The translations under genes and the position numbers were made by a program. Of a stretch of 64,000 nucleotides of DNA, positions 1,349 through 18,039 are shown piece after piece. The notes below the pieces were generated by a model, which saw only the letters and a program-made list of their open reading frames with translations, made no database searches and had not been told where the DNA came from. The stretch's first letter is position 1, and each line of letters starts with the position of its first letter. This DNA comes from a virus. The stretch lies in IMG/VR virus record IMGVR_UViG_3300010388_000228, positions 1 through 64,000 of that record. One strand, 5' to 3'.

Positions 1349-1590
1349 TTGAATTGGCACCACTTGAGTTATGGAAATACGACTTAAACAAAGTAGAAGC
1401 TAAGATGGCAATTTTTATGACAAAAGGTTATAGAATTGGAACCCTTGAAGAAATGAATTCTCTAAAAGACGATATACTATCAATAGATGATACTATGTGG
1501 GACGCATGGACATTAGATGCAGTACACAGTGACAACGTTCCGGACACAGAAACTGGAACGTTGATTCCAATAAGGACTAAACAATGTTAG
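1345..1590 (+). CDS. DUF1566-like array member 2 (divergent)
   Basis: IELAP..GYRIGTLEE..PIRT; GTG start overlapping upstream stop. Confidence 0.65.
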   Translation: MIELAPLELWKYDLNKVEAKMAIFMTKGYRIGTLEEMNSLKDDILSIDDTMWDAWTLDAVHSDNVPDTETGTLIPIRTKQC

Positions 1591-1823
1591 AATATGGTAA
1601 GAAATCAGAAAACGACTTAGACTATGATGGGGCATATATGTATTGCTTTTGGCATGAGCCAGTAGGCACTTGGAGACTTCCAACTGAACAGGAATACTTC
1701 CAGACAATGCTACGCTACCCAGGTAACGTAATACCTAAATGGTACGAAGACAGAGATCAGCTTGAAGAGAAGATCTTTCAACAACCAGCTAAAATGCGTG
1801 TAGTGCCTGTACGATCACTATGA
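1584..1823 (+). CDS. DUF1566-like array member 3
   Basis: YDGAYMYC..WRLPTEQE..PVRS. Confidence 0.75.
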   Translation: MLEYGKKSENDLDYDGAYMYCFWHEPVGTWRLPTEQEYFQTMLRYPGNVIPKWYEDRDQLEEKIFQQPAKMRVVPVRSL

Positions 1824-2080
1824 TCCAAGTCAGTTACTATGCTAACAATATACGGAATCACTATCCAATTGAAGTAGCACCGACTTCTAACGAAATGATG
1901 ACATACGAAAACGCTAAACTCTATGTTCTGTTCTATGAACACAACGGACATAGAGATTGGAGACTGCCTACGTTACAAGAATGGCTTAGCCATAACCCGC
2001 CACTAATAGGGTGGGATGATCATGGAGATGATAGTACTGATATAGTCCGTTATGTAACCCCAGTGAGAGATATAAAATGA
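1820..2080 (+). CDS. DUF1566-like array member 4
   Basis: IEVAP..DWRLPTLQE..PVRD. Confidence 0.75.
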   Translation: MIQVSYYANNIRNHYPIEVAPTSNEMMTYENAKLYVLFYEHNGHRDWRLPTLQEWLSHNPPLIGWDDHGDDSTDIVRYVTPVRDIK

Positions 2081-2316
2081 TCGAACTAGCACCCGAAACA
2101 CATTGGCTTACGCATTGTACACAAGATGAAGCATCCATGTATATCTTGTTTCAAAAAGGCTGGCGCCTTCCTAAAATAAAAGAACTTAATCAAGTAAGAA
2201 AATTGTTAGGAGTACGCTATATTGTAATATGGACTCAAGAAGCTGTAAGCAACTTTGAAAGTAATCAGCTGATGTATATTAAAGCACGAGTAATCCCAGT
2301 GAGGGACGTATGCTAA
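2077..2316 (+). CDS. DUF1566-like array member 5
   Basis: MIELAP..GWRLPKIKE..PVRD. Confidence 0.75.
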   Translation: MIELAPETHWLTHCTQDEASMYILFQKGWRLPKIKELNQVRKLLGVRYIVIWTQEAVSNFESNQLMYIKARVIPVRDVC

Positions 2317-2738
2317 AAATGGCTGAGCCATCACCGCATGCCTTATCGTACGACGATGCCTGGCTCTATTGTGCAACTTGTACAGCTGATAGATATTATG
2401 ATTGGCGATTACCTACTTATAATGAGTATCAATCTAACCAATTGCGTAACAGCTACGGTTGGACTGAGGATAGCGACTACAGAGGTAAAATACGAACTTT
2501 CCCAGTAAGGAGTATGAAAACAATTGAAGGCCCAGTATCTATTCCACTACCGTATGACGAAGCTTGGCTATATTGTGCTACCCTAACCCGTGATAACAAA
2601 TACGATTGGCGGATGCCTTCTAGTTTAGAATACAATGATTTAAGTATGGGTAAAACTTGGTATATAGAACGGTTAATGGCCTATAAAAAGAATGATAATA
2701 TCGGCAAGTTGAAAGTAGTACCACTGAGAACTATATGA
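2310..2738 (+). CDS. DUF1566-like array member 6, two fused domains
   Basis: Two AWLYCAT..YDWR.P units; internal AAGGAG plus in-frame ATG at 2514. Confidence 0.8.
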   Translation: MLKMAEPSPHALSYDDAWLYCATCTADRYYDWRLPTYNEYQSNQLRNSYGWTEDSDYRGKIRTFPVRSMKTIEGPVSIPLPYDEAWLYCATLTRDNKYDWRMPSSLEYNDLSMGKTWYIERLMAYKKNDNIGKLKVVPLRTI

Positions 2739-2953
2739 TTGAACAAGCAGACAAGAATAAGACAAAATTTTTGTATGATGACGCATGGCTCTATTGTGCT
2801 ACCCTAACCCAAGATAACAAGTATAATTGGCGCATACCTACGTTTAATGAATGCTCAAAGTATAATATGGATTCGCATTGGGACACGCGGCCTAGCGAGT
2901 CTTATGCGTACAGAGGTGTTGCATGGTACATAACCCCAGTGAGAGACTTATGA
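2735..2953 (+). CDS. DUF1566-like array member 7
   Basis: AWLYCATLT..YNWRIPT..PVRD. Confidence 0.8.
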   Translation: MIEQADKNKTKFLYDDAWLYCATLTQDNKYNWRIPTFNECSKYNMDSHWDTRPSESYAYRGVAWYITPVRDL

Positions 2954-3156
2954 TTGAACAAGCCCTAAGAACAGATTATGGTATGTGCTATGACTCTGCA
3001 TTCGTATACTGTCTAACATTAGATTATAATGGCCATAAAGATTGGCGATTACCTACACTTGATGAATATGCATCTTCAAACATAACCCGTAGCTGGTATG
3101 AAGGCCGCGAACGCGATTGTTTTAATTGGGCAGCTACCCCAGTGAGAGACCTATGA
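2950..3156 (+). CDS. DUF1566-like array member 8
   Basis: Start reassigned to ATG 2950 (ATGA overlap, MIEQA); KDWRLPT..PVRD. Confidence 0.8.
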   Translation: MIEQALRTDYGMCYDSAFVYCLTLDYNGHKDWRLPTLDEYASSNITRSWYEGRERDCFNWAATPVRDL

Positions 3157-3380
3157 TTAAACGAGGCCCAGGGTCACCTAAAAGATTATGCCACGACGAC
3201 GCCTGGCTATATTGTGCTACCCTAACACATGAGAACAAATACGATTGGCGTATGCCCAATCGTTCAGAACACACCTCTATTCCACCTAGTACTTGGTTTG
3301 ATGGTAGGTTTTCTCAGTATTCAGAGTATCATACTAGCATGTCAATGTCTGTAACCCCAGTGAGAGAAATATATGATTGA
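3153..3380 (+). CDS. DUF1566-like array member 9
   Basis: Start at ATG 3153 (ATGA overlap); AWLYCATLT..YDWRMP..PVRE. Confidence 0.8.
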   Translation: MIKRGPGSPKRLCHDDAWLYCATLTHENKYDWRMPNRSEHTSIPPSTWFDGRFSQYSEYHTSMSMSVTPVREIYD

Positions 3381-3579
3381 ACGAGCTCCAAGAACAACTT
3401 ATGAAATGTGCTATGACTCTGCATTCTTATACTGCCTAATATTAGAATATAAGGGACATAAAGATTGGCGAATACCTACTGAAGAAGAATATTCAACTTT
3501 AACAATTTCATACGGTTGGCATGAAGGCCGGGAGTGGAGTGCCTTTAAATGGGGAGTTACCCCAGTGAGAGACATATGA
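3373..3579 (+). CDS. DUF1566-like array member 10 (close paralog of member 8)
   Basis: MCYDSAF.YCL..GHKDWR.PT..EGRE..PVRD. Confidence 0.8.
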   Translation: MIERAPRTTYEMCYDSAFLYCLILEYKGHKDWRIPTEEEYSTLTISYGWHEGREWSAFKWGVTPVRDI

Positions 3580-3794
3580 TTGAATTATACGAATATCCTA
3601 AATCATTAAAAGTAAGCTATGCGGACGCTGAACTGCTATCTTGGACTTGTACACACAACAACAAGTATGATTGGAGACTTCCTACAAAGTGGGATGATAT
3701 CCCATTCATTATGCAAGTTGAATGCTGGAATCCAACTGGCTCACCTTACGAGTTTGAATACAGAAAGTTTAGACCGGTAGTATTAGTAAGATGA
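3576..3794 (+). CDS. DUF1566-like array member 11
   Basis: Start at ATG 3576; WTCTHNNKYDWRLPT. Confidence 0.8.
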   Translation: MIELYEYPKSLKVSYADAELLSWTCTHNNKYDWRLPTKWDDIPFIMQVECWNPTGSPYEFEYRKFRPVVLVR

Positions 3795-4003
3795 TTGAAA
3801 TAGGACCATCACTACACAAAGTTGATTATGATACTGCTTGGTTATATACCGCCACTCTAACACATAAAGACAAATACGATTGGCGATGGCCTACACTCTC
3901 TGACTTTCGTCATGTCCATAATATCCCAAATTCAATATGGTATCAAGGCTATCTTCCTAACCAATTAGACACACGAAAGATATACCCAGTGAGAGACATA
4001 TGA
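3791..4003 (+). CDS. DUF1566-like array member 12
   Basis: AWLYTATLT..YDWRWPT..PVRD. Confidence 0.8.
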   Translation: MIEIGPSLHKVDYDTAWLYTATLTHKDKYDWRWPTLSDFRHVHNIPNSIWYQGYLPNQLDTRKIYPVRDI

Positions 4004-4230
4004 TTGAAACTGCTCCAGTAAGTAAGGTTACACTACCATTTGACATCGCATGGATGTATGTGTTATTATTAGACTATAACAACAAAAAAGACTGGCGATT
4101 ACCAACCTTTGATGAAATTTTAGAAAATGATAGCCTACAAGTTGGAGTATGGACTAAAGAATACATTGACTCAAGCCCAGATTATTCTAAATGGTTTAAA
4201 AAACCAGTAACTCCAGTGAGAGACATATGA
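4000..4230 (+). CDS. DUF1566-like array member 13
   Basis: MIETAP..KDWRLPT..PVRD. Confidence 0.8.
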   Translation: MIETAPVSKVTLPFDIAWMYVLLLDYNNKKDWRLPTFDEILENDSLQVGVWTKEYIDSSPDYSKWFKKPVTPVRDI

Positions 4231-4451
4231 TTGAAACTGCTCCAGTAAGTATAGATACACTACCATTTGACATAGCATGGCTCTATTGTGCTACCCTAAC
4301 ATATGATAACAAAAACGACTGGCGATTTCCTACATTTGGTGAATATGTATACGATCTTAATACAATAGTGGGTGTATGGCATGAGAGTGATAGTAACAAT
4401 CGCACCAGCTTTTCACGATACGCACAACCAGTAAGGACCAAAGATGATTGA
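4227..4451 (+). CDS. DUF1566-like array member 14
   Basis: MIETAP..AWLYCATLT..DWRFPT..PVRT. Confidence 0.8.
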   Translation: MIETAPVSIDTLPFDIAWLYCATLTYDNKNDWRFPTFGEYVYDLNTIVGVWHESDSNNRTSFSRYAQPVRTKDD

Positions 4452-4677
4452 AACTGCGCCAGTAAGTGAGGATAAACTAACATTTGACGAAGCCTGGCTG
4501 TATGTGTTATTATTAGACTACAACAACAAAAAAGACTGGCGCTTACCCGAGTTTCTTGAATATATGCACGAATACGATGTTAATAAAACAGGGTTCCTAT
4601 GGTTTTTGGACACTACTCCTGCCAACATTCACAGCCTCACCCGCCGCACACTACCAGTAAGGACTAAAGATGATTGA
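4444..4677 (+). CDS. DUF1566-like array member 15
   Basis: MIETAP..KDWRLP..PVRT. Confidence 0.8.
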   Translation: MIETAPVSEDKLTFDEAWLYVLLLDYNNKKDWRLPEFLEYMHEYDVNKTGFLWFLDTTPANIHSLTRRTLPVRTKDD

Positions 4678-4900
4678 ACACGCGCCGTTAGTCAAATACC
4701 TTAGTATAGATGAAGCTGAACTATACACAATGACACTTACCTATAACAACAAGTATGACTGGAGAATTCCTACTATACCTGAACTAAAAACAATACCAAG
4801 GCATTTTCTACCTGTATGTTGGCATCAACATGATCTTATAGCACCACGGCTTGAAGATATGAAATGCGGAGTAATAGCAGTGAGGACTAAAGATGATTGA
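4670..4900 (+). CDS. DUF1566-like array member 16
   Basis: MIEHAP..YDWRIPT..AVRT. Confidence 0.8.
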   Translation: MIEHAPLVKYLSIDEAELYTMTLTYNNKYDWRIPTIPELKTIPRHFLPVCWHQHDLIAPRLEDMKCGVIAVRTKDD

Positions 4901-5096
4901 AGCAGCGCCTTTTTCACCATTGATGGCATACGACGATGCATTCTTATATGCAATAACCTGTACACATAACGACAAGTATGACTGGCGAATACCTGTTCCT
5001 AGTGACTTCTCCAACAAATTAGCTGCTAAACCAAGAACACTAGGTCAACGCCGCAAAATACAATTTTGCCCAGTAAGAGGATCAATAGATGATTGA
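4893..5096 (+). CDS. DUF1566-like array member 17
   Basis: MIEAAP..YDWRIP..PVRG. Confidence 0.8.
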   Translation: MIEAAPFSPLMAYDDAFLYAITCTHNDKYDWRIPVPSDFSNKLAAKPRTLGQRRKIQFCPVRGSIDD

Positions 5097-5334
5097 AATG
5101 GGACCAATAATTACAACACATCATGTTGACTACGATACCGCATTGTTAGCTACCATAACCTGTACGTTCGGCAATCACTATGATTGGCGTGTGCCTACAG
5201 ACGACGAATGGATAAGTTATGGTTGGATAAAAAGTTGGACTTGGAACGAATCTCGCATGGCTAGATATTCAGGTATTCCTCATGAGGATATCGTATCGTA
5301 TGCACTTTGCATAGTAAGGAATAAAGATGAGTAA
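5089..5334 (+). CDS. DUF1566-like array member 18
   Basis: MIEMGP..YDWRVPT..IVRN. Confidence 0.8.
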   Translation: MIEMGPIITTHHVDYDTALLATITCTFGNHYDWRVPTDDEWISYGWIKSWTWNESRMARYSGIPHEDIVSYALCIVRNKDE

Positions 5335-5542
5335 GTATATAGAAATAGCCCCTACCACTACTCTGTTTACGTATGACGAAGCATGGCTCTACTGTGCTAC
5401 ATTGACTCATAATGGCAAATATAATTGGAGAATACCTACCGAAAACGAGTATTTAGATTATGAGATTGATGGTTGGTTAGATGAAGAAAAAGACGACTAC
5501 GTGTTGTGGCCTCAACAAGTAACCCCAGTGAGAGATGTATGA
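5327..5542 (+). CDS. DUF1566-like array member 19
   Basis: IEIAP..AWLYCATLT..YNWRIPT..PVRD. Confidence 0.8.
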   Translation: MSKYIEIAPTTTLFTYDEAWLYCATLTHNGKYNWRIPTENEYLDYEIDGWLDEEKDDYVLWPQQVTPVRDV

Positions 5543-5778
5543 TTGAAATAGGTAAAACAACAGCCGTTGCGCTTGACTATGACACTGCATGGCTTTATAC
5601 TATTACTTCAACTTACAACAACAAATACGATTGGCGAATGCCATCTTGGTACGAATGGGGCGTATATACGGTCATTCCACAAGATGCATGGACCGATAAC
5701 CTTACTCCTGTTGATCAGTGGGGAAACCTAATTTATAACTTTGGTACCTTAGTGAGAGATATTAAAGATGATGTTTGA
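5539..5778 (+). CDS. DUF1566-like array member 20
   Basis: Start at ATG 5539; YDWRMPS..LVRD. Confidence 0.8.
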   Translation: MIEIGKTTAVALDYDTAWLYTITSTYNNKYDWRMPSWYEWGVYTVIPQDAWTDNLTPVDQWGNLIYNFGTLVRDIKDDV

Positions 5779-5989
5779 ATATGCAACGCATAGTGAAGAG
5801 TCAGTTAGCTTTGACCAAGCATGGCTCTATTGTGCTACTTGTACACATAAAGACAAATACGATTGGCGTTTACCAACACACAAAGAATGGATTATGAATG
5901 ATATCCCATATTATGTTTGGTTTAATGATCGTTTTGCCGTTGCTGCTGAAGTGTACAGTGTAGTACCAGTAAGGGGGTATGAATGGTAG
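5768..5989 (+). CDS. DUF1566-like array member 21
   Basis: AWLYCATCT..YDWRLPT..PVRG. Confidence 0.8.
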   Translation: MMFEYATHSEESVSFDQAWLYCATCTHKDKYDWRLPTHKEWIMNDIPYYVWFNDRFAVAAEVYSVVPVRGYEW

Positions 5990-6237
5990 TTGGCCCACAC
6001 TCAACAATACAACTAACTGCAGAAGAAGCTGACCTGTTTATTTGGACTTGCTCACACAATAACAAATACGATTGGCGAGCCCCATCTGCCCATGAATGTA
6101 CTAGATCAAGATTTAATAAAACCGCAAATATGACTTGGACAACTTACCGACTTATCGTTGCCGATGAAGCCTCCAGAAGAGGATATGGTGACGCTAGGTT
6201 CTTTGCAGCCACAGTGAGAGATAATAATGGCATTTGA
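5983..6237 (+). CDS. DUF1566-like array member 22
   Basis: WTCSHNNKYDWRAPS..TVRD. Confidence 0.8.
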   Translation: MVVGPHSTIQLTAEEADLFIWTCSHNNKYDWRAPSAHECTRSRFNKTANMTWTTYRLIVADEASRRGYGDARFFAATVRDNNGI

Positions 6238-6838
6238 TATACAACCGTTGTTTGCAAACCCAGTACTTACAACTATTCCGGACGGTATGGTAACACCTTA
6301 CTATAATGCAATTAACCATTGCAAGGCATTAGATTATTATATCAATGTAGGACGTAACTTAACAAGCAGCGATACAAAGATACTAGATCATCCAGTATTT
6401 GTAGAAATTAACGATCTGATACAACATGCGATTAATCAATATGCACATGACATAATGAAATGGGATAACGTTGAGCTTTATGTTACCCAATCTTGGATCA
6501 ATATTAACCCTAAAGGTACCGAACATCATAGTCACTATCACCCAAATAGCGTAATTAGTGGTGTATTCTATCTTCAAACAGTTACTGATGATTCTATTGT
6601 GTTTCGAAACGATAACTGCTCGTTACCATTTGAATTTGATAGAACTGAGTATAACATATGGAATTCTAATATATGGAGGATTCCTGTATCTACTAATGAA
6701 ATTGTGATTTTTCCATCAAGCCTGTGGCATAGTGTTGATACCCACGATGATGATGTTGATAGGATTAGCATTGCATTTAATGTATTCTTCCGAGGCCATG
6801 CCGGTGGTGAAATTCGATTAACTCACTTACCCTTATGA
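6227..6838 (+). CDS. 2OG-Fe(II) oxygenase (TIGR02466-like)
   Basis: SWININ..HxHPNSVISGVFY..IFPSSLWHSV..RISIAFN. Confidence 0.85.
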   Translation: MAFDIQPLFANPVLTTIPDGMVTPYYNAINHCKALDYYINVGRNLTSSDTKILDHPVFVEINDLIQHAINQYAHDIMKWDNVELYVTQSWININPKGTEHHSHYHPNSVISGVFYLQTVTDDSIVFRNDNCSLPFEFDRTEYNIWNSNIWRIPVSTNEIVIFPSSLWHSVDTHDDDVDRISIAFNVFFRGHAGGEIRLTHLPL

Positions 6839-7071
6839 TTGAACACGCACCTGAAACCCCTATACACAATATAGAACTTACTGAACTATTTGCTTGGACT
6901 TGTACACACAACAACAAGTACGATTGGCGAGTGCCTACCATACTAGAACAAGAGCAATCTAAAAAAGATAAGTGTAGGCTTGCAACCGTGTATTATGATG
7001 AAACTGAAGCCGGCAGGCTACCCATTACATACACCAACACTGCTAAGTTTATCCCAGTGAGAGACGTATGA
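6835..7071 (+). CDS. DUF1566-like array member 23
   Basis: MIEHAP..YDWRVPT..PVRD. Confidence 0.8.
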   Translation: MIEHAPETPIHNIELTELFAWTCTHNNKYDWRVPTILEQEQSKKDKCRLATVYYDETEAGRLPITYTNTAKFIPVRDV

Positions 7072-7286
7072 TTGAAATAGCATACAAAAGCCGAGATAAA
7101 CTATGCAAAGACCCAGCTTGGCTCTATTGTGCCACTTGTACACACGATAACAAGTATGACTGGCGACTTCCAACTGATCATGAACTTAATACTGATGAAC
7201 TGCTAAACTCCAGTTATCAATTTACTTGGGCAGAAGACGATATGGCCGGCTATGTCCTATACGCAATCCCAGTGAGAGACTTATGA
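7068..7286 (+). CDS. DUF1566-like array member 24
   Basis: AWLYCATCT..YDWRLPT..PVRD. Confidence 0.8.
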   Translation: MIEIAYKSRDKLCKDPAWLYCATCTHDNKYDWRLPTDHELNTDELLNSSYQFTWAEDDMAGYVLYAIPVRDL

Positions 7287-7510
7287 TTGAACAAGCACCT
7301 CGATCCCCTAAACTATACAGAGACGAAGCATTCCTGTGGGTTTGGACTTGCTCACACAATAACAAATACGACTGGCAACTTCCAATCAGACACGACGCTA
7401 GCGACGGCTGGAATAGCTGGAATGCTTACAAATTGAATATGTTTGAACACGACAAATCGTACGAATGGATGCACTGGCCAATCACACCCGTGAGAACTAC
7501 TAATGATTGA
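7283..7510 (+). CDS. DUF1566-like array member 25
   Basis: Start at ATG 7283; YDWQLP..PVRT. Confidence 0.8.
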   Translation: MIEQAPRSPKLYRDEAFLWVWTCSHNNKYDWQLPIRHDASDGWNSWNAYKLNMFEHDKSYEWMHWPITPVRTTND

Positions 7511-7709
7511 ACAAGCACCAAAACTTAAACAAGAGCTGGATTATGACGAAGCTTGGCTTTACTGCGCCACACTAACCCACAATAACAAATACGACTGGCG
7601 CCTCCCTACACATAAAGAATACATGAGCCACGAACACATCGTAGGTTGGTTTAAACACAGAGATAGCTGGGGAGACTTCCCAATTATACCCGTGAGAGAC
7701 AAACTATGA
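7503..7709 (+). CDS. DUF1566-like array member 26
   Basis: AWLYCATLTHNNKYDWRLPT..PVRD. Confidence 0.8.
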   Translation: MIEQAPKLKQELDYDEAWLYCATLTHNNKYDWRLPTHKEYMSHEHIVGWFKHRDSWGDFPIIPVRDKL

Positions 7710-7954
7710 TTATCGAACAAGCTCCCCCATCACTCCAACCCCTGTCTATAGAAGATACCTTCTTATACACTATAACTTGCTCACACAACAACAAACACGA
7801 CTGGCGTCTCCCCACCCATAAAGAGGTAGCTTACTATGCTTTGAACAACTGCTGGCGCAATATTGATAGCGACGATAACAATGACTGGGCTAAGACTAGA
7901 TGGCACAATTGGAGTTCTCGCTATGTGTGTATCCCCGTGAGAGACAAACTATGA
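7706..7954 (+). CDS. DUF1566-like array member 27
   Basis: IEQAP..HDWRLPT..PVRD. Confidence 0.8.
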   Translation: MIIEQAPPSLQPLSIEDTFLYTITCSHNNKHDWRLPTHKEVAYYALNNCWRNIDSDDNNDWAKTRWHNWSSRYVCIPVRDKL

Positions 7955-8190
7955 AAGAAACCGCCATACAATCTAAACATAAACAAACCCAAGACGAAGC
8001 GTTCTTGTACATTATAACCTGTACACATAACAATCATTACGACTGGAGATTCCCTACTATATACGAATTTATATATAGTGGATTTTTTACTAATCGAGAT
8101 GTTTGGAATATTGAGAATGTGAATAATCCGTATCTTAATATAGTAAAAGTGAAATATATGACTCTTCCTATTAGAGATATAAAGAGATAA
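7951..8190 (+). CDS. DUF1566-like array member 28
   Basis: Start at ATG 7951; YDWRFPT..PIRD. Confidence 0.8.
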   Translation: MKETAIQSKHKQTQDEAFLYIITCTHNNHYDWRFPTIYEFIYSGFFTNRDVWNIENVNNPYLNIVKVKYMTLPIRDIKR

Positions 8191-8213
8191 TGCAACACAT
8201 CCATTGCATACAC

Positions 8214-8468: not shown

Positions 8469-8777
8469 GATGAAAGCGAGGCCTGCAAAAAATTTTTTGA
8501 AAAAGGTTAACAATAGATGAGGCCTATGGTGGTTACAGGAGATATTGTTAACCAATGGCAGCAGGCCTGCAGGAATTATGAGGTTTTTGGAGGTTTTGGC
8601 AAAAGTATGACGCAAGTATGGTGGTATTCATTGTAGCTATGCCGTCCAACCACCCATTCCTGCTATATCGTTACAGTTATATTACAGTGGTAAAATTGTG
8701 CCAAAACAGTGCTTTACAATACCAAAACAGTGTGCTATACTATGCACATATTAACAAACTAACTGGAGCGTACCAAA

Positions 8778-8948
8778 ATGCACTTAATATTTGAACTTAT
8801 TGGTCTTGTATTCCTAGCAGCCATCTCTATAGCGTTGCTTGCCACAATACTATTAGTAATAGGCGCAGTCGGATTATTTCAAACACACAATCCATTGTTT
8901 GTACTACCATTGTTATTTGGTGTAATGCTTGCAAGCGCGTTGGATTAA
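8778..8948 (+). CDS. small two-TM membrane protein (56 aa; not in ORF track)
   Basis: TTTACA..TATACT promoter, GGAGCG RBS, MHLIFELIGLVFLAAISIALLATILLVIGAVG... Confidence 0.6.
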   Translation: MHLIFELIGLVFLAAISIALLATILLVIGAVGLFQTHNPLFVLPLLFGVMLASALD

Positions 8949-8955
8949 AAACCAG

Positions 8956-9018
8956 TTGACACTCTATACTATACTATAGTATAATAAACACTTACTAACA
9001 CACAATGCGGAGCGCAAT
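8956..9018 (+). promoter_or_regulatory. sigma70-type promoter plus conserved leader (cttactaacacacaatgcGGAGCG)
   Basis: TTGACA..TATAAT; the same leader precedes the ATGs at 61, 10430, 11508 and 12904. Confidence 0.75.
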
Positions 9019-9897
9019 ATGCAACAACCAATAGCTAAACCCCAAATGATTACTATAGACACTCTTAAGTCAACTCGTACTATAGCGCAAAGACCAGCCG
9101 AACCAGTATCACACGAAACAGATGAAGAGATTGTAGAACGATTGCGTACACGGTTTGCCATACTAGATAACATGACTCGTGCAGTAAAGAAAGGTGATGT
9201 GCGAGCAATGATTGTAAGTGGACCTCCGGGCGTAGGTAAGTCACATGGTATTGAAACAGTGTTATCTAGACACGATGTATTCGCTACTATAGCGCAAGAT
9301 GACAGCTTAAAGAAGTATGAGATTGCTAAAGGTAACATTAGCGCGTTAGGACTGTACCAGATGCTGTGGAACTTCAAAGACCATCGCTCTATAGTAGTGT
9401 TTGATGACTGCGATAGTGTATTGTTTGATGATATCGCGTTAAACCTGTTAAAAGCAGCATTGGACACAGGGCGCAAGCGTACTATCAGTTGGCACACAGA
9501 GTCACGCATACTAAAAGAAGCAGGGATTCCAAACAGTTTTGACTTTGAAGGTGGATGTATATTCATTACAAATGTTAAGTTTGACCATGTACGTAGTAAG
9601 AAGTTAAAGGACCATTTAGAAGCGTTAGAGTCACGGTGCCACTACTTGGATCTCACTATAGATACAGAGCGCGAAAAGATGTTACGCATCAAGCAAATCG
9701 TAGGGGATGGAATGCTTGATAAGTATGAGTTCGTCAATGGCGAAGCGGACGAAGTAGTACAGTATATAGACGCGCATAGAAAGAAGATGCGTGAGTTAAG
9801 TTTGCGTATGGTTCTTAAGGTTGCCGACTTGCGTAAGAGCATGCCAAACAACTGGGAGACTGTAGCTTCCATTACATGTATGCGACCACAACGATAA
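9019..9897 (+). CDS. P-loop/AAA+ ATPase
   Basis: Walker A GPPGVGKS, Walker B VVFDDCD, sensor-like FITN, ALESRC. Confidence 0.85.
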   Translation: MQQPIAKPQMITIDTLKSTRTIAQRPAEPVSHETDEEIVERLRTRFAILDNMTRAVKKGDVRAMIVSGPPGVGKSHGIETVLSRHDVFATIAQDDSLKKYEIAKGNISALGLYQMLWNFKDHRSIVVFDDCDSVLFDDIALNLLKAALDTGRKRTISWHTESRILKEAGIPNSFDFEGGCIFITNVKFDHVRSKKLKDHLEALESRCHYLDLTIDTEREKMLRIKQIVGDGMLDKYEFVNGEADEVVQYIDAHRKKMRELSLRMVLKVADLRKSMPNNWETVASITCMRPQR

Positions 9898-9916
9898 TAA
9901 GAATCGCATATAATTA

Positions 9917-10035
9917 AGAATACTATTGATTCGCTCCCAATAGTATTCTACACTATAGTATAGATTCGCTCCCTATACTATAGTAAACTCTCAAAGCTCA
10001 CTTTAGATTCGCTCCCTAAAGTGAGCTTTTTCTTT
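9917..10035 (+). ncRNA. three-hairpin RNA element with identical AUUCGCUCC loops; third hairpin doubles as intrinsic terminator
   Basis: Perfect stems 9917-9949 (12 bp), 9952-9984 (12 bp) and 9993-10029 (14 bp); U tract after the third. Confidence 0.6.
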
Positions 10036-10429
10036 ATATTAAAAACCAGACCCTGTACTCTGGTACTAGGTCGGTCTATAAACGTGAAAAACGGCAAAAA
10101 CATGGTGTTGCAGACCGCTAACGACGCGGGCCAAAAACCAAAGATGAGTCTTAAATATAGGAGCCTGGACTAGTAATAGGCCCCGCTGTGCAGTTATACT
10201 CATATGCGTATATGCGTGTATTATTACACTATAGTGTATCATAGCGTAAAATGCGCTGTAATGCGTTACACGCGCTGGTGCGTACTTATGCTATAGTATG
10301 TTATGCGCTTATAATATAACACGCTACACACGCACATACAAGCGAGCGTATACGAGTAACAAAGTTCTTTACAGACCCCGCTGTATATGTTATACTATGT
10401 ACTTACTAACAACAACTGCGGAGCACGCA

Positions 10430-10732
10430 ATGAAGTTATGCAATGTACCACAAGACTTATTAGCAAAGCAAGCAATGATAGATACTATTCCAGACATGAT
10501 TTGGATAGCACTAATAGTAACCTTGCTTAGTGGACTATACTATATGTATAAGAGGTTACGGGCAGATGATGCATTAGATCCAAAGGATGATGTAGCAATG
10601 GGATTCTTTCTTATAGTATTAACTATCGGCGGAGCACTGTTGTCAGCCGAGTTGCTCAAACATATCATAACCGCATTCCTTAATCCAGAGTATGCAGCAA
10701 TGGTTAAGTTTACTGCAGAGTGCGTCAAATGA
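10430..10732 (+). CDS. hypothetical membrane protein (2 TM)
   Basis: Start at 10430 after promoter and GGAGC; two hydrophobic helices. Confidence 0.65.
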   Translation: MKLCNVPQDLLAKQAMIDTIPDMIWIALIVTLLSGLYYMYKRLRADDALDPKDDVAMGFFLIVLTIGGALLSAELLKHIITAFLNPEYAAMVKFTAECVK

Positions 10733-11277
10733 TCCGCGCTGCCATTCTCGCTACTATAGTAGTAATGCCGATACATGCGGATGTGTATCGGTATACAGGA
10801 GCAGATGGGAGAGTTTGGTTAACTGATCATCCACAAGAGATCGCAACATCTGCCAAACCTACTACTATAGTAAAGAAACCGGAGACTCGCCCACTAACTC
10901 GATGGGAGATCAACCACTATGTTCATGCTGCGGCAAAGAAGTATGGAGTGGATGAGAAGTTAGTTCATGCAGTCATTAAAACGGAAAGTACATATCGTAA
11001 ATCGGCTGTAAGTAAGAAGGGAGCAGCTGGATTGATGCAGCTGATGCCAGCAACGGCAGAGCGATTTGGTGTGAGTGATCGGATGGATGAGCGGCAGAAC
11101 ATAGAGGGCGGAGTCCGGTTCCTAAGGTTCTTGCTCGATACATTCAAAGATACCAAACTAGCGGTTGCCGGATACAATGCGGGCGAGCATGCGGTAATGC
11201 GACATAAGAACCGGATTCCACCATATCCGGAAACCCGAAACTATGTGGGATTGGTAATGGCGGCATACACTGAATAA
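10729..11277 (+). CDS. secreted soluble lytic transglycosylase (SLT) with DUF4124-like N-terminus
   Basis: Signal peptide; ADVYRYTGADG..TDHP; AVIKTES, GAAGLMQLMP, AGYNAGE, PPYPETRNYV. Confidence 0.9.
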   Translation: MIRAAILATIVVMPIHADVYRYTGADGRVWLTDHPQEIATSAKPTTIVKKPETRPLTRWEINHYVHAAAKKYGVDEKLVHAVIKTESTYRKSAVSKKGAAGLMQLMPATAERFGVSDRMDERQNIEGGVRFLRFLLDTFKDTKLAVAGYNAGEHAVMRHKNRIPPYPETRNYVGLVMAAYTE

Positions 11278-11507
11278 CAAACCAGTTGACAACCAATGCG
11301 TAGTTTGCTATACTATGCGTGTACTATATATAAGAGGAGCAAGCAATAATGTCGTTTTTATATAATTTCGCAGTGTTTACTACTATAGTATTACTAAGTG
11401 TAATCGCGTTATTGAACTGGTATGAGTTAGTGATTTAAAAAGTTCTTTACAAACCAAAGTTAGTTTGTTATACTATACACTTACTAACAAGCAATGCGGA
11501 GCGTACA

Positions 11508-11696
11508 ATGTATAAACTAACACTTACTACCACAAGCAAGCATCCAGTAATTATTTACTTTGGTGCCAACGGTATCGCAGTATCACCAAGTGACATGTTC
11601 ACTTATGTGTATGTAAATGGCAACAGCTGGCAAACAGAAGAATCAGCTGAGTCGATCGAAGCGCGTATTGATGCAGCGATTGCGGCACGTGGTTAA
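11508..11696 (+). CDS. small hypothetical early protein
   Basis: Own promoter and GGAGCG RBS; similar to 789..983. Confidence 0.65.
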   Translation: MYKLTLTTTSKHPVIIYFGANGIAVSPSDMFTYVYVNGNSWQTEESAESIEARIDAAIAARG

Positions 11697-11804
11697 CAAA
11701 CTACTTGCAAAATGTTTTAAAACGTGTATAATATGTAACAAGTTAGCAAGCAAGCTAACTAGCAGTAAAACAACTTAACTTTTCTATTTTTTGGAGCGTA
11801 CAAT

Positions 11805-12167
11805 ATGTCAAAAGTAATCACAGTTGCAACAGTTGAAAAAACATTCACATTCGCTGGCGTTAGCGACCTCAACGGTGTGTACAAAATCCGCTTTGCTAAC
11901 AGCGCGGATCGTGTGAAAGTGTTACACCGCAATGGGCACTTAGACATTCGCTTAGTAGCGTTAGCGGGTGCAATGACTAAATATGAAGCAGCAATGGCAA
12001 TCAAAGACTTAGAGGAGTTCGCGGACTTAGATGCACAACAAGCATTCGATGACTTCTTTAGCAAAACTGCTATCGTTACTCCCAAAACTGCTGTAATTGA
12101 GACAGCAGATGATGTAGACTATGCGGCAGCAGCAGATGCATTGGAAGCTGAGTTAGCGACAGCATAA
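11805..12167 (+). CDS. hypothetical early protein, family A
   Basis: GVSD..YKIRF..H.DIR..FAD..AQ.A...F.SK shared with 17662..18039. Confidence 0.7.
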   Translation: MSKVITVATVEKTFTFAGVSDLNGVYKIRFANSADRVKVLHRNGHLDIRLVALAGAMTKYEAAMAIKDLEEFADLDAQQAFDDFFSKTAIVTPKTAVIETADDVDYAAAADALEAELATA

Positions 12168-12810: not shown

Positions 12811-12903
12811 TATAGATATACCGGCAGGCGGTTAACAAAGTTCTTTACAAACCGCCTGCTATGCTTTATAATATACACTTACTAAACAACAACGGAGCGT
12901 CAA

Positions 12904-13251
12904 ATGCACCCATATAACCAAGCTAAAATTAACATGTCAGCTGCCAATAATGCTATTATTGCGCAGTACAATTGGACTATCAGTAAAACTACAGCAATAT
13001 ATATGGTTGCTGATTATGAGTTTGCTGAAGAATGGGCGCAGGACTTTATGACACATCCAGCACACATTGACAAAAAGATTAAAGCGATATACAATGCTTT
13101 TCCGGACAAACACGAGCTATGGAACAATAACACGTTGAAAGCGCAGTTAGTAGAGAAAGTTGAAGCGCATACGGACTTAGTGGATTACATTAACGGGCTG
13201 TTACGAAACGCTGAGTTCGTTGAGTGCTGTGCGCAAGGTGAGGGGTTGTAG
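12904..13251 (+). CDS. hypothetical early protein, family C
   Basis: AD..FAEEW..HPAHI..LWN..VE.H.DLVDYIN..AEFV shared with 16050..16397. Confidence 0.7.
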   Translation: MHPYNQAKINMSAANNAIIAQYNWTISKTTAIYMVADYEFAEEWAQDFMTHPAHIDKKIKAIYNAFPDKHELWNNNTLKAQLVEKVEAHTDLVDYINGLLRNAEFVECCAQGEGL

Positions 13252-14373: not shown

Positions 14374-14482
14374 AGCAAGCGGTAAACAAAACGCTTGCAA
14401 TGTTGTAAGCGTTTTGCTATACTATGTGCAAGTTAGCAATGTTGCTAACTTGTTAAACAAACTACTACACTGGAGCGCCACA

Positions 14483-14890
14483 ATGCAAACTACTACTAAA
14501 TTACTTAAAAACACAGCTAACGCTATTGCTCACGTTGTATCACACACATCGGACGAAGTCAAACTTCCAGCTTATGTGTGCTTGCAGGATATTAAGCGTA
14601 GAGATGCAGAGAATGTGGAATTGTACAGTGCGGTACAGTTGCATGTTGGGGAAGCGTTGTTAGCGCATATTGAGGATGTGTATATACAGAGCAACGTGTA
14701 TTTGAACTACCGCAAAAAGTTTATTGCCGTTAAAGTCAACAGTCCCAAGTTTACTGATAAAGCAAGTTTAAGAGCAGCGAAGTTAGATATATGGGCAGAG
14801 GCTAATGGAATTGTAATTGAGCATACGAGACACGGCAACATGGTGTACAGAGCTAACATGGATGCACTGGATGCCATAGCAGCCGCATAG
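14483..14890 (+). CDS. hypothetical early protein
   Basis: ATG 14483 after GGAGCG. Confidence 0.65.
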   Translation: MQTTTKLLKNTANAIAHVVSHTSDEVKLPAYVCLQDIKRRDAENVELYSAVQLHVGEALLAHIEDVYIQSNVYLNYRKKFIAVKVNSPKFTDKASLRAAKLDIWAEANGIVIEHTRHGNMVYRANMDALDAIAAA

Positions 14891-15001: not shown

Positions 15002-15157
15002 ATGCAAGTAAAAAACATTAAACTGATACACACATATTGCAGTACGTGTGGGGACTTGAGTGTACTACACAACATGGAAACAGATGAGCTCGAACCATGT
15101 TGGGCTTGTGAGCAAACTGAAGCAAATGACTTTAACGATAAAGCGGAGCGTGTATAA
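15002..15157 (+). CDS. small zinc-ribbon-like protein (51 aa; not in ORF track)
   Basis: CSTC...CWAC; promoter TTGCAA..TATAAT; TAATG overlap with next gene. Confidence 0.6.
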   Translation: MQVKNIKLIHTYCSTCGDLSVLHNMETDELEPCWACEQTEANDFNDKAERV

Positions 15158-15423
15158 TGGCAACAGGTATTATGAACAACGAAGTTAAACAACAACAAGC
15201 AGCGGAGTTAGCGGCTCGCGTGGCAATGTTCTTAGCAACCGGTGGACAGATTAAAACGACTAAAACAGGACGCAGAGGGCGTACGACAGTATCACAAGTT
15301 CATACTCCCCGCGTTGTGGTAGTAGAGAAACAACGATACACATGGGAAGAGGCAAAACGGGAGCTAGCGGAGATTGGCTTACTGACTAAGCCAGTACAAT
15401 CGGCAATCAAAGCACGCCAATAG
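15157..15423 (+). CDS. hypothetical early protein, family D
   Basis: V..FL..GG....K and W..A...L shared with 16574..16864. Confidence 0.65.
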   Translation: MATGIMNNEVKQQQAAELAARVAMFLATGGQIKTTKTGRRGRTTVSQVHTPRVVVVEKQRYTWEEAKRELAEIGLLTKPVQSAIKARQ

Positions 15424-17370: not shown

Positions 17371-17661
17371 AAGAGGAAGTGTGAGTGCAGTGGTAGCGCG
17401 AGCAATGAGCTTGCGCTATTATAACACAAACAAATGCAAAATGCAAGCGGTAAATTAAATAAAAATAATGCTTGCAATGTTTTAAAAATAGCGTATAATG
17501 TAACACAAGTTAGCAATAACGCTAACTTTTAACACTACTACAGCGTGCTAATTATGCAAAATAAAACTAAAAAAACACTTGCTTTTACTGTAAAAAAAGT
17601 GTATAATGTGCAACATAAATTAAACTTAGTAACAAACAACAACACAAGTGGAGCGAACACT

Positions 17662-18039
17662 ATGAACACAACAACAAACACAACACCAGTTTTTGCACAA
17701 GTAGTAACAGCAAGCTCAAAAGCCAACAGCAAATTAGTACAATGCGTGGGTGTTAGCGATCACGCAAAGCTGGGCTACAAAATACGCTTTAGCGGCAAGC
17801 CCGAAGCAACGGCGCGTGTTACTACGCTAATTGCAACAAAATTACACACGGACATCCGCTTTATAAACTTAGCACAAATTAAAACGGAAATTGAGGCAGC
17901 TGTAGAATTAGAAGGGCATCCAAACTTTGCAGATGACAACGCGCAAATGGCTATTGCGGCGTTTTTAAGCAAGCATAACGCAACGGAAGTACAGGCAGCA
18001 AGAGACGCGTATGCGGAACTGTTAGCACAGGCGGCATAA
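17662..18039 (+). CDS. hypothetical early protein, family A
   Basis: ATG 17662 after GGAGCGAA; GVSDH..GYKIRF. Confidence 0.7.
   Translation: MNTTTNTTPVFAQVVTASSKANSKLVQCVGVSDHAKLGYKIRFSGKPEATARVTTLIATKLHTDIRFINLAQIKTEIEAAVELEGHPNFADDNAQMAIAAFLSKHNATEVQAARDAYAELLAQAA

Follow-up and report, generated by a model that had tools for sequence, protein, structure and literature searches.

Tandem hairpins with one invariant loop, complementary to a ribosome-binding-site tag of early genes in uncultured jumbo phages: a candidate anti-tag small RNA

The stretch of DNA analysed here (hereafter the window) is the first 64 kb (64,000 nucleotides) of a 98-kb IMG/VR record, IMGVR_UViG_3300010388_000228, for which CheckV gives a completeness of 27%, and its source is an uncultured jumbo myovirus. 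The nearest isolates, Pseudomonas phage PA5oct and its kin, share protein identities of ~50-54% with it, and its uncultured relatives include a complete 372-kb genome with terminal repeats (G001), whose ATPase is 78% identical to that of the window. Further along the window's own record, beyond the window, two giant adjoining minus-strand ORFs encode 3688 and 2670 aa (G000:C1:73480-92601). The locus of interest consists of an early gene for an AAA ATPase, matched in tblastn by T4-like NrdC.10 and by PA5oct gp126, and of its 3' untranslated region, where three hairpins follow one another, the first starting 20 nt past the ATPase stop:

9019..9897, plus strand: AAA ATPase gene (T4 NrdC.10-like), from the ORF, weak AAA Pfam matches and tblastn
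9917-9949, plus strand: hairpin 1, 12-bp stem (9917-9928/9938-9949), loop AUUCGCUCC at 9929-9937
9952-9984, plus strand: hairpin 2, 12-bp stem, loop AUUCGCUCC at 9964-9972
9993-10029, plus strand: hairpin 3, 14-bp stem, loop AUUCGCUCC at 10007-10015
10027-10035, plus strand: U tract after hairpin 3, TTTTTCTTT up to 10035

The first-pass annotation of this DNA had described three perfect hairpins at 9917-10035 (plus strand) with variable stems of 12, 12 and 14 bp, one shared loop closed by a G-C pair and a terminal U tract, and both the sequence and its predicted fold agree with that description. All three loops read ATTCGCTCC in the DNA (AUUCGCUCC in RNA). RNAfold returned exactly the three hairpins for the element, at -45.6 kcal/mol, compared with -17.6 +/- 2.8 kcal/mol for dinucleotide shuffles (z = -9.9), none of the 200 shuffles being as good. 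The 11-mer comprising the loop and its closing pair, GATTCGCTCCC, occurs in three copies in the window and in the whole 98-kb record, all of them at the hairpin locus. Hairpin 3 and its U tract likely form an intrinsic terminator and the 3' end of the RNA, as a stable hairpin is directly followed by a run of U (TTTTTCTTT); a consensus terminator scan missed it because the loop is longer than the 8-nt limit of the scan. A search for a promoter belonging to the RNA in the window gave at best 9 of 12 matches, overlapping the ATPase stop and at chance level.

Two known kinds of hairpin were compared with the element and set aside. A tRNA T arm or tRNA-like element has a 7-nt T loop (UUCRANY), A58 and a cloverleaf, whereas the loop here is 9 nt long with C at the place of A58, and ARAGORN found no tRNA in the window; we regard the 9-of-11 resemblance of the 11-mer to a tRNA T arm as unsupported. 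Hairpin promoters of the N4 type have stems of 5-7 bp and loops of 3 nt and lie at the left genome end, whereas these stems are 12-14 bp long, the loops are 9 nt long and the element lies at the 3' end of a gene.

The element is kept in about 60 related phage contigs, its carriers being uncultured jumbo phages of one large clade from freshwater, estuaries and wastewater; in PA5oct, the closest isolate, neither hairpins nor tag was found. Across 98 distinct hairpins the 11-mer GAUUCGCUCCC hardly changes, whereas the stems show complete covariation. Of 109 hairpins, 103 have ATTCGCTCC as their loop and 101 close it with a G-C pair, a constancy that spans ATPase identities of 60-87%, and the hairpin flanks comprise 85 distinct 12-mers that differ nearly everywhere. 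At least 6 pairs enclose the loop in 99% of the 98 distinct hairpins (mean 12.7, vs 6.7 for shuffled flanks), and one subtype carries compensatory changes at all 7 outer-stem positions without a single broken pair. In a search anchored on the ATPase, every locus of at least 63% identity (15/15) carries 2-3 motif copies directly behind the gene, and loci at 59% or below are without the motif. A pattern scan of IMG/VR that was independent of the ATPase, and which required two exact motif copies 20-50 nt apart, yielded 56 loci, of which 53 are the hairpin element and 3 are simple tandem repeats. The 9-mer is found in two copies in the complete 372-kb genome, both at the hairpin locus, which amounts to one locus per genome. 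In the lake clade the loop sits on a helix of 2-3 bp above conserved internal loops (CCAAC/GGYAA, AUAARYCC), motifs that are not present in the window clade, whose stems are perfect. Loop invariance, stem covariation and the single locus together indicate a single-copy structured element of which the loop is the constrained part, and the earlier suggestion that the loop is the functional part is strengthened by its identity in 103 of 109 hairpins on covarying stems.

The hairpin element is an RNA family missing from curated databases. Rfam, searched at permissive thresholds, gave no match below E = 0.3 for the stretch in the window, and for 12 related loci its matches at E <= 1 were only tRNAs and a weak overlapping Plastid-ycf2; no description of such a phage RNA was found in the literature searched. 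When 185,579 prokaryote genomes were scanned for the 11-mer in two copies, 83 loci came up, all of them tandem or REP-like repeats in which it falls within a repeat unit or a stem. None consists of two variable-stem hairpins that carry the 11-mer in their loops, hence no cellular homologue and no clue to the host, and the element appears to be phage-only.

The genomic setting of the element defines its strand. In all 59 cases the element shares its strand with the gene before it, which in 56 of these is the ATPase, 7-97 nt away; of 63 related loci, 55 have a run of T after their last motif hairpin. Two groups are arranged differently. In group X (four loci) the element still closes the same operon, with a small winged-helix gene as its immediate upstream neighbour, and in group Y (three loci, L060, L062 and L072, in records G006-G008) no gene feeds it. 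The order in clade Y is a consensus promoter, a 5' hairpin without the motif and two motif hairpins. The promoter (TTGACA or TTGACC, 17 nt, TATACT; 11-12 of 12 consensus matches) ends exactly 59 nt before the first motif, a fixed distance, and after the last hairpin comes a conserved CACCTTGAG in place of a U tract, with the next promoter immediately behind it. No promoter of this type was found in the other 44 distinct contexts. Given the constant loop, the fixed strand, the terminators and the promoter of one clade, we read the element as an RNA whose loop is the working part, and the settings of groups X and Y indicate a module that most phages have as a 3'UTR and others as a separate sRNA gene of ~125 nt. 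The plus-strand reading proposed for the window is supported by the U tracts, by an orientation that stays constant relative to the preceding gene and by the promoter seen in clade Y. Among Logan contigs from two metatranscriptomes and two other runs, compared with positions 8600-11400, those from RNA libraries that belong to related phages cover the ATPase and the downstream genes and not 9916-10197, which speaks neither for nor against expression, since such contigs show neither RNA ends nor levels.

The non-coding DNA downstream has features of its own. The ~150 nt that directly follow the hairpin terminator (10040-10190) hardly differ between the window and relatives whose ATPases are 87% and 78% identical, so that they exceed the ATPase gene in conservation, and on the minus strand they end in a terminator-like hairpin at 10064-10045 followed by TTTTT. 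This stretch may encode a second ncRNA, convergent with the hairpin RNA; Rfam gave no match to 10040-10190, and its variation is too small for a fold test. The next non-coding stretch (10200-10360) is rich in short GCG-centred repeats (ATGCGT, AGCGT, ACGCG) and lies downstream of a TATACT -10-like element at ~10198; the stretch is kept in L004 and not in L005.

The second half of the evidence comes from the ribosome-binding sites (RBSs) of the early genes, many of which carry what we call the tag, a Shine-Dalgarno (SD) sequence extended to GGAGCG. The first-pass annotation had listed eight such leaders, together with shorter GGAGC leaders before the ATGs at 61, 10430, 15490 and 17173, and all are present as given. 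The eight tagged sites follow, each with support from the site listing and the predicted duplex energy; the 8-nt form GGAGCGAA occurs only before ATG 17662:

8765..8780, plus strand: GGAGCG RBS before ATG 8778 (56-aa ORF), predicted loop duplex -10.2 kcal/mol
9009..9021, plus strand: GGAGCG RBS of the ATPase gene itself (ATG 9019)
11498..11510, plus strand: GGAGCG RBS before ATG 11508
11793..11807, plus strand: GGAGCG RBS before ATG 11805
12894..12906, plus strand: GGAGCG RBS before ATG 12904
14472..14485, plus strand: GGAGCG RBS before ATG 14483
15145..15159, plus strand: GGAGCGTG RBS before ATG 15157
17650..17664, plus strand: GGAGCGAA RBS before ATG 17662, the only 8-nt complement in the window and the best predicted target (-12.9 kcal/mol)

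The tag is specific to one temporal class of genes. The leader classes of the record, which rest on rough gene calls, are GGAGC(G) or an SD-less AGCGTG for the genes at 8.6-18.4 kb, each with its own sigma-70-type promoter; GAGAGA or AAGGA for an array of ~28 small ORFs (1.4-8.2 kb); and AAGGA, or GGAG followed by A, T or G, for late and structural genes. Among sites with GGAG, 8 of the 14 early ones and none of the 20 late ones read GGAGCG (p = 1.7e-4), and GGAGC is found at 13 of the 14 early and 1 of the 20 late ones (p = 2e-7). In the complete genome G001, a 28-kb region surrounding the element holds, on a single strand, 18 of the 24 GGAGCG-N3-8-ATG sites (p about 3e-21), and two lake-clade records (G002 and G003) display the same split between early and late genes. 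Equal frequency of GGAGCG at late RBSs, named at the outset as an observation that would tell against the idea, is thus not what the record contains. The CG that follows GGAG adds no pairing to the 16S anti-SD, and some other pressure must therefore maintain it. The RBS of the ATPase carries GGAGCG in all 37 distinct loci where the hairpins lie directly behind the gene, and no tag in the three group X loci that lack this arrangement. The original claim that a whole early regulon is targeted is overstated, as about half of the early genes in the window are tagged. In a PHROG scan, the proteins of the tagged early genes were all orphans save for one weak membrane-protein match.

The same region contains other repeated sequences. 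AGCGTG, a second private early leader, stands 6-9 nt before nine further early ATGs without any SD (12539, 13330, 14011, 14988, 16038, 16559, 17542, 18137 and 15147); 10 of the 13 copies in the record lie in its first 21 kb, nine of these before an ATG, and several belong to near-identical promoter-hairpin-leader cassettes. These leaders had been linked to the loop through a shared AGCG core, but they have only 4 nt in common with the loop complement and are not credible targets. At 1450-8200 (plus strand) lies the tandem array of ~28 small ORFs of 45-142 aa (mostly 65-90), whose stops and starts overlap at junctions marked by a repeat, CCAGTGAGAGA-N2-4-ATG; within the array lies a gene for a 2OG-Fe(II) oxygenase (6227-6838), and related clades have similar arrays ending ...FLLRWS. 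Intergenic regions among the early genes repeatedly contain a GC-rich polar motif, G(G/A)CCCCGCTG (10179, 10374, 12175, 12441, 14890, 15423 and further sites), its copy at 10374 filling the spacer of a TTTACA-17-TATACT promoter.

Loop and tag are complementary to each other. The CGCUCC of the loop complements GGAGCG exactly, so the complementarity claimed by the first-pass annotation is real, extending over 6 nt in the window and 8 nt in sister clades. The tags of the window continue after GGAGCG with T or C, so that 6 of the 9 loop bases pair, except at ATG 17662 (8 nt); in the other clades the tag GGAGCGAA is an 8-nt complement of the loop part UUCGCUCC. GGAG sites in the lake clade (n=261) read GGAGCG in 59%, GGAGCGA in 50% and GGAGCGAA in 35% of cases, those of group X (n=76) read GGAGCG in 53% and GGAGCGAA in 25%, and those of the window clade read GGAGCG in 54%, with only 3% continuing with A. 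When the 9-nt loop was paired with translation start regions of the window, energies of -8 kcal/mol or below were predicted for 12 of 22 early and 2 of 58 late regions (Mann-Whitney p = 8e-5), and at tagged sites the predicted loop duplex (-10 to -12.9 kcal/mol) is stronger than the duplex with the 16S anti-SD (-5.6 to -7.0 kcal/mol). A C/U-rich loop complementary to the SD of the target, as in sRNAs of the LhrC and RNAIII type, is thus found for eight early RBSs. The UUCG of the loop fits the YUNR signature of a U-turn, which in antisense RNAs presents the following bases for fast pairing and may do so here for CGCUCC. A relation of tag and loop to the 16S helix-24 sequence GGGGAGCGAACAGG of some phyla is an unsupported idea.

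We give about an even chance to the reading that the element is an anti-tag sRNA, which would repress early translation in the manner of cuckoo RNAs, LhrC or RNAIII. The three hairpins would form an RNA of ~120 nt at the 3' end of the early ATPase transcript, either as its 3'UTR or as a fragment released from it, in which each stem would display the invariant loop AUUCGCUCC for pairing through its 3' part, CGCUCC (UUCGCUCC in sister clades), with GGAGCG(AA). The latter would serve as a private SD extension on about half of the early genes transcribed by the host RNA polymerase, the ATPase gene included. Made together with the early transcripts and stabilised by its hairpins, the RNA would build up, and its loops would pair in vivo with tagged SDs and block 30S binding; because the loop-tag duplex is predicted to be stronger than the 16S anti-SD duplex, the accumulated RNA should occlude tagged RBSs. 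The outcome would be a delayed negative feedback that shuts off a subset of early genes, its own ATPase gene among them. If so, timing would be exerted by an RNA regulator and a sequence tag in the RBSs of one temporal gene class, instead of by a protein, and the pair could be of use as a compact orthogonal translational switch.

Some facts fit poorly with the anti-tag sRNA. Clade Y (G006, G007 and G008) has the RNA with identical loops and nearly no tagged RBS (0 in 68 kb of G006; 1 in G007, a GGAGCGAA directly downstream of the RNA), and a sister clade (L017-L025) has a GGAGCAC tag, with no GUGCUCC-type loops or tandem shared-loop hairpins found in 60 kb of G004 and in seven loci, so that a GGAGC extension need not be accompanied by the RNA. 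None of the 11 nt varies, not even A2, U3, U4 and the G-C closing pair, whose constancy is left unexplained by pairing with window tags. Shared ancestry is a confounder wherever loop and tag are found together, and a compensatory change between them is not obtainable as proof because the loop never varies. The tag-poor clade Y, the RNA-less GGAGCAC clade and the 6-of-9 pairing in the window leave room for a protein or host partner, and we consider it possible, if doubtful, that a protein or a conserved host RNA recognises the loops by their sequence, the phage RNA being a decoy, sponge or RNP scaffold and the tag complementarity either being secondary or coupling tagged mRNAs to the partner. 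Such a site would account for the invariance of the closing G-C and of the AUU that is unable to pair with window tags, as well as for the retention of the RNA in clade Y without a tagged regulon, and the lake-clade loop on 2-3 bp over conserved internal loops suggests a defined three-dimensional motif. The perfect stems of the window clade are without those internal-loop motifs, however, and there is no co-occurring candidate: the winged-helix protein beside the group X element is absent from the window's own record (G000), G001 and G006, and RegB (PF10715), considered as the reason for a GGAG-centred tag, is absent from G000-G003. An 8-nt perfect complement between two independently conserved features is, moreover, unlikely to arise by chance.

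The remaining explanations dispense with a trans-acting plus-strand RNA. It is improbable that the hairpins are cis-only elements, i.e. tandem intrinsic terminators or 3' stabilisers of the ATPase operon that possibly pair with the ATPase's own RBS in autoregulation, even though they lie at the operon end, with a U tract after the last one, and the ATPase RBS is tagged in 37/37 linked loci; terminators need neither an invariant 11-nt loop nor two to three copies, the clade Y element has its own promoter without an upstream gene, the group X element stands behind an untagged winged-helix gene, and the tag is on many other early genes. HUH nuclease hairpin origins also combine a variable stem with an invariant nonanucleotide loop, and the GCG-rich repetitive non-coding stretch 200 nt downstream would likewise suit a function at the DNA level, with single-stranded or cruciform hairpins recognised via the 9-nt loop by a replication, nicking or packaging protein. 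We regard this as very unlikely in view of the fixed orientation behind a gene, the U tracts, the clade Y promoter at its fixed distance and the single locus per 372-kb genome, in the early region; the loop on 2-3 bp above internal loops in many relatives suits an RNA and would make a poor cruciform. The least probable reading by far is the alternative entertained in the first-pass annotation, in which minus-strand transcription would present the loops as GGAGCGAAU, an RBS or GGA decoy similar to the CsrA-type sponges. It has the GGA of the complementary loop in its favour and nothing more, and we reject it: T tracts, gene orientation and the promoter of clade Y each favour the plus strand, and on the minus strand the terminator-like hairpin at 10064-10045 (with TTTTT) precedes the element; a CsrB/RsmZ-type GGA-loop sponge is likewise discarded, as the loops on the transcribed strand are AUUCGCUCC.

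Beside the anti-tag sRNA in its repressive form, we see a small probability that tag and anti-tag RNA constitute a phage-owned orthogonal control of initiation, in which the multivalent RNA would gather or park tagged mRNAs and time their hand-over to ribosomes, possibly with bS21. In this way a jumbo phage would apportion access to ribosomes between the classes of its own genes, the RNA serving as a surrogate anti-SD. A homologue of ribosomal protein bS21 (PF01165, 55.9 bits) is encoded in the complete genome (G001:C1:285560-285715, minus strand, locus L105) and was not found in the 98 kb of the window's own record; since bS21 adjoins the SD/anti-SD helix, it may bear on class-specific initiation.

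Known systems offer both likenesses and differences. In phage T4, the translational repressor protein RegA and the GGAG-cutting endoribonuclease RegB both shut off early mRNA translation via initiation regions. The logic of an early phage product silencing early mRNAs at their initiation regions would be the same here, whereas the effectors of T4 are proteins and the proposed effector is an RNA. The Listeria sRNAs LhrC1-5, of ~100 nt and up, use redundant CU-rich (UCCC) loop sites, including one in the terminator loop, to pair with the SD and block initiation (PMC4132741), and RNAIII and the Rsa sRNAs of Staphylococcus similarly have several UCCC loop sites that pair with SD regions. The phage loop with its closing base also reads UCCC, without sequence homology to either; LhrC and RNAIII are host stress or virulence regulators with few targets each, whereas the target signature of the phage element is present in many early genes. 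The closest counterparts are the cuckoo RNAs of Alphaproteobacteria (RSs0680a-d/CcsR, C14/alpha-r14), with 2-4 adjacent variable-stem hairpins that share an identical 9-nt, anti-SD-like, C/U-rich loop motif (PMC4615179). Like these, the phage element has three hairpins (2-3 in relatives) with covarying stems and one shared loop. Unlike them, it is phage-encoded rather than carried on alphaproteobacterial chromosomes, its loop is AUUCGCUCC in 103 of 109 hairpins and not CCUCCUCCC, no Rfam model matches it, and the loop corresponds not to a generic SD but to a private extension, GGAGCG/GGAGCGAA, of one temporal gene class. We read the element as a new, phage-borne variant of the multi-hairpin anti-SD sRNAs, with a mechanism that is inferred.
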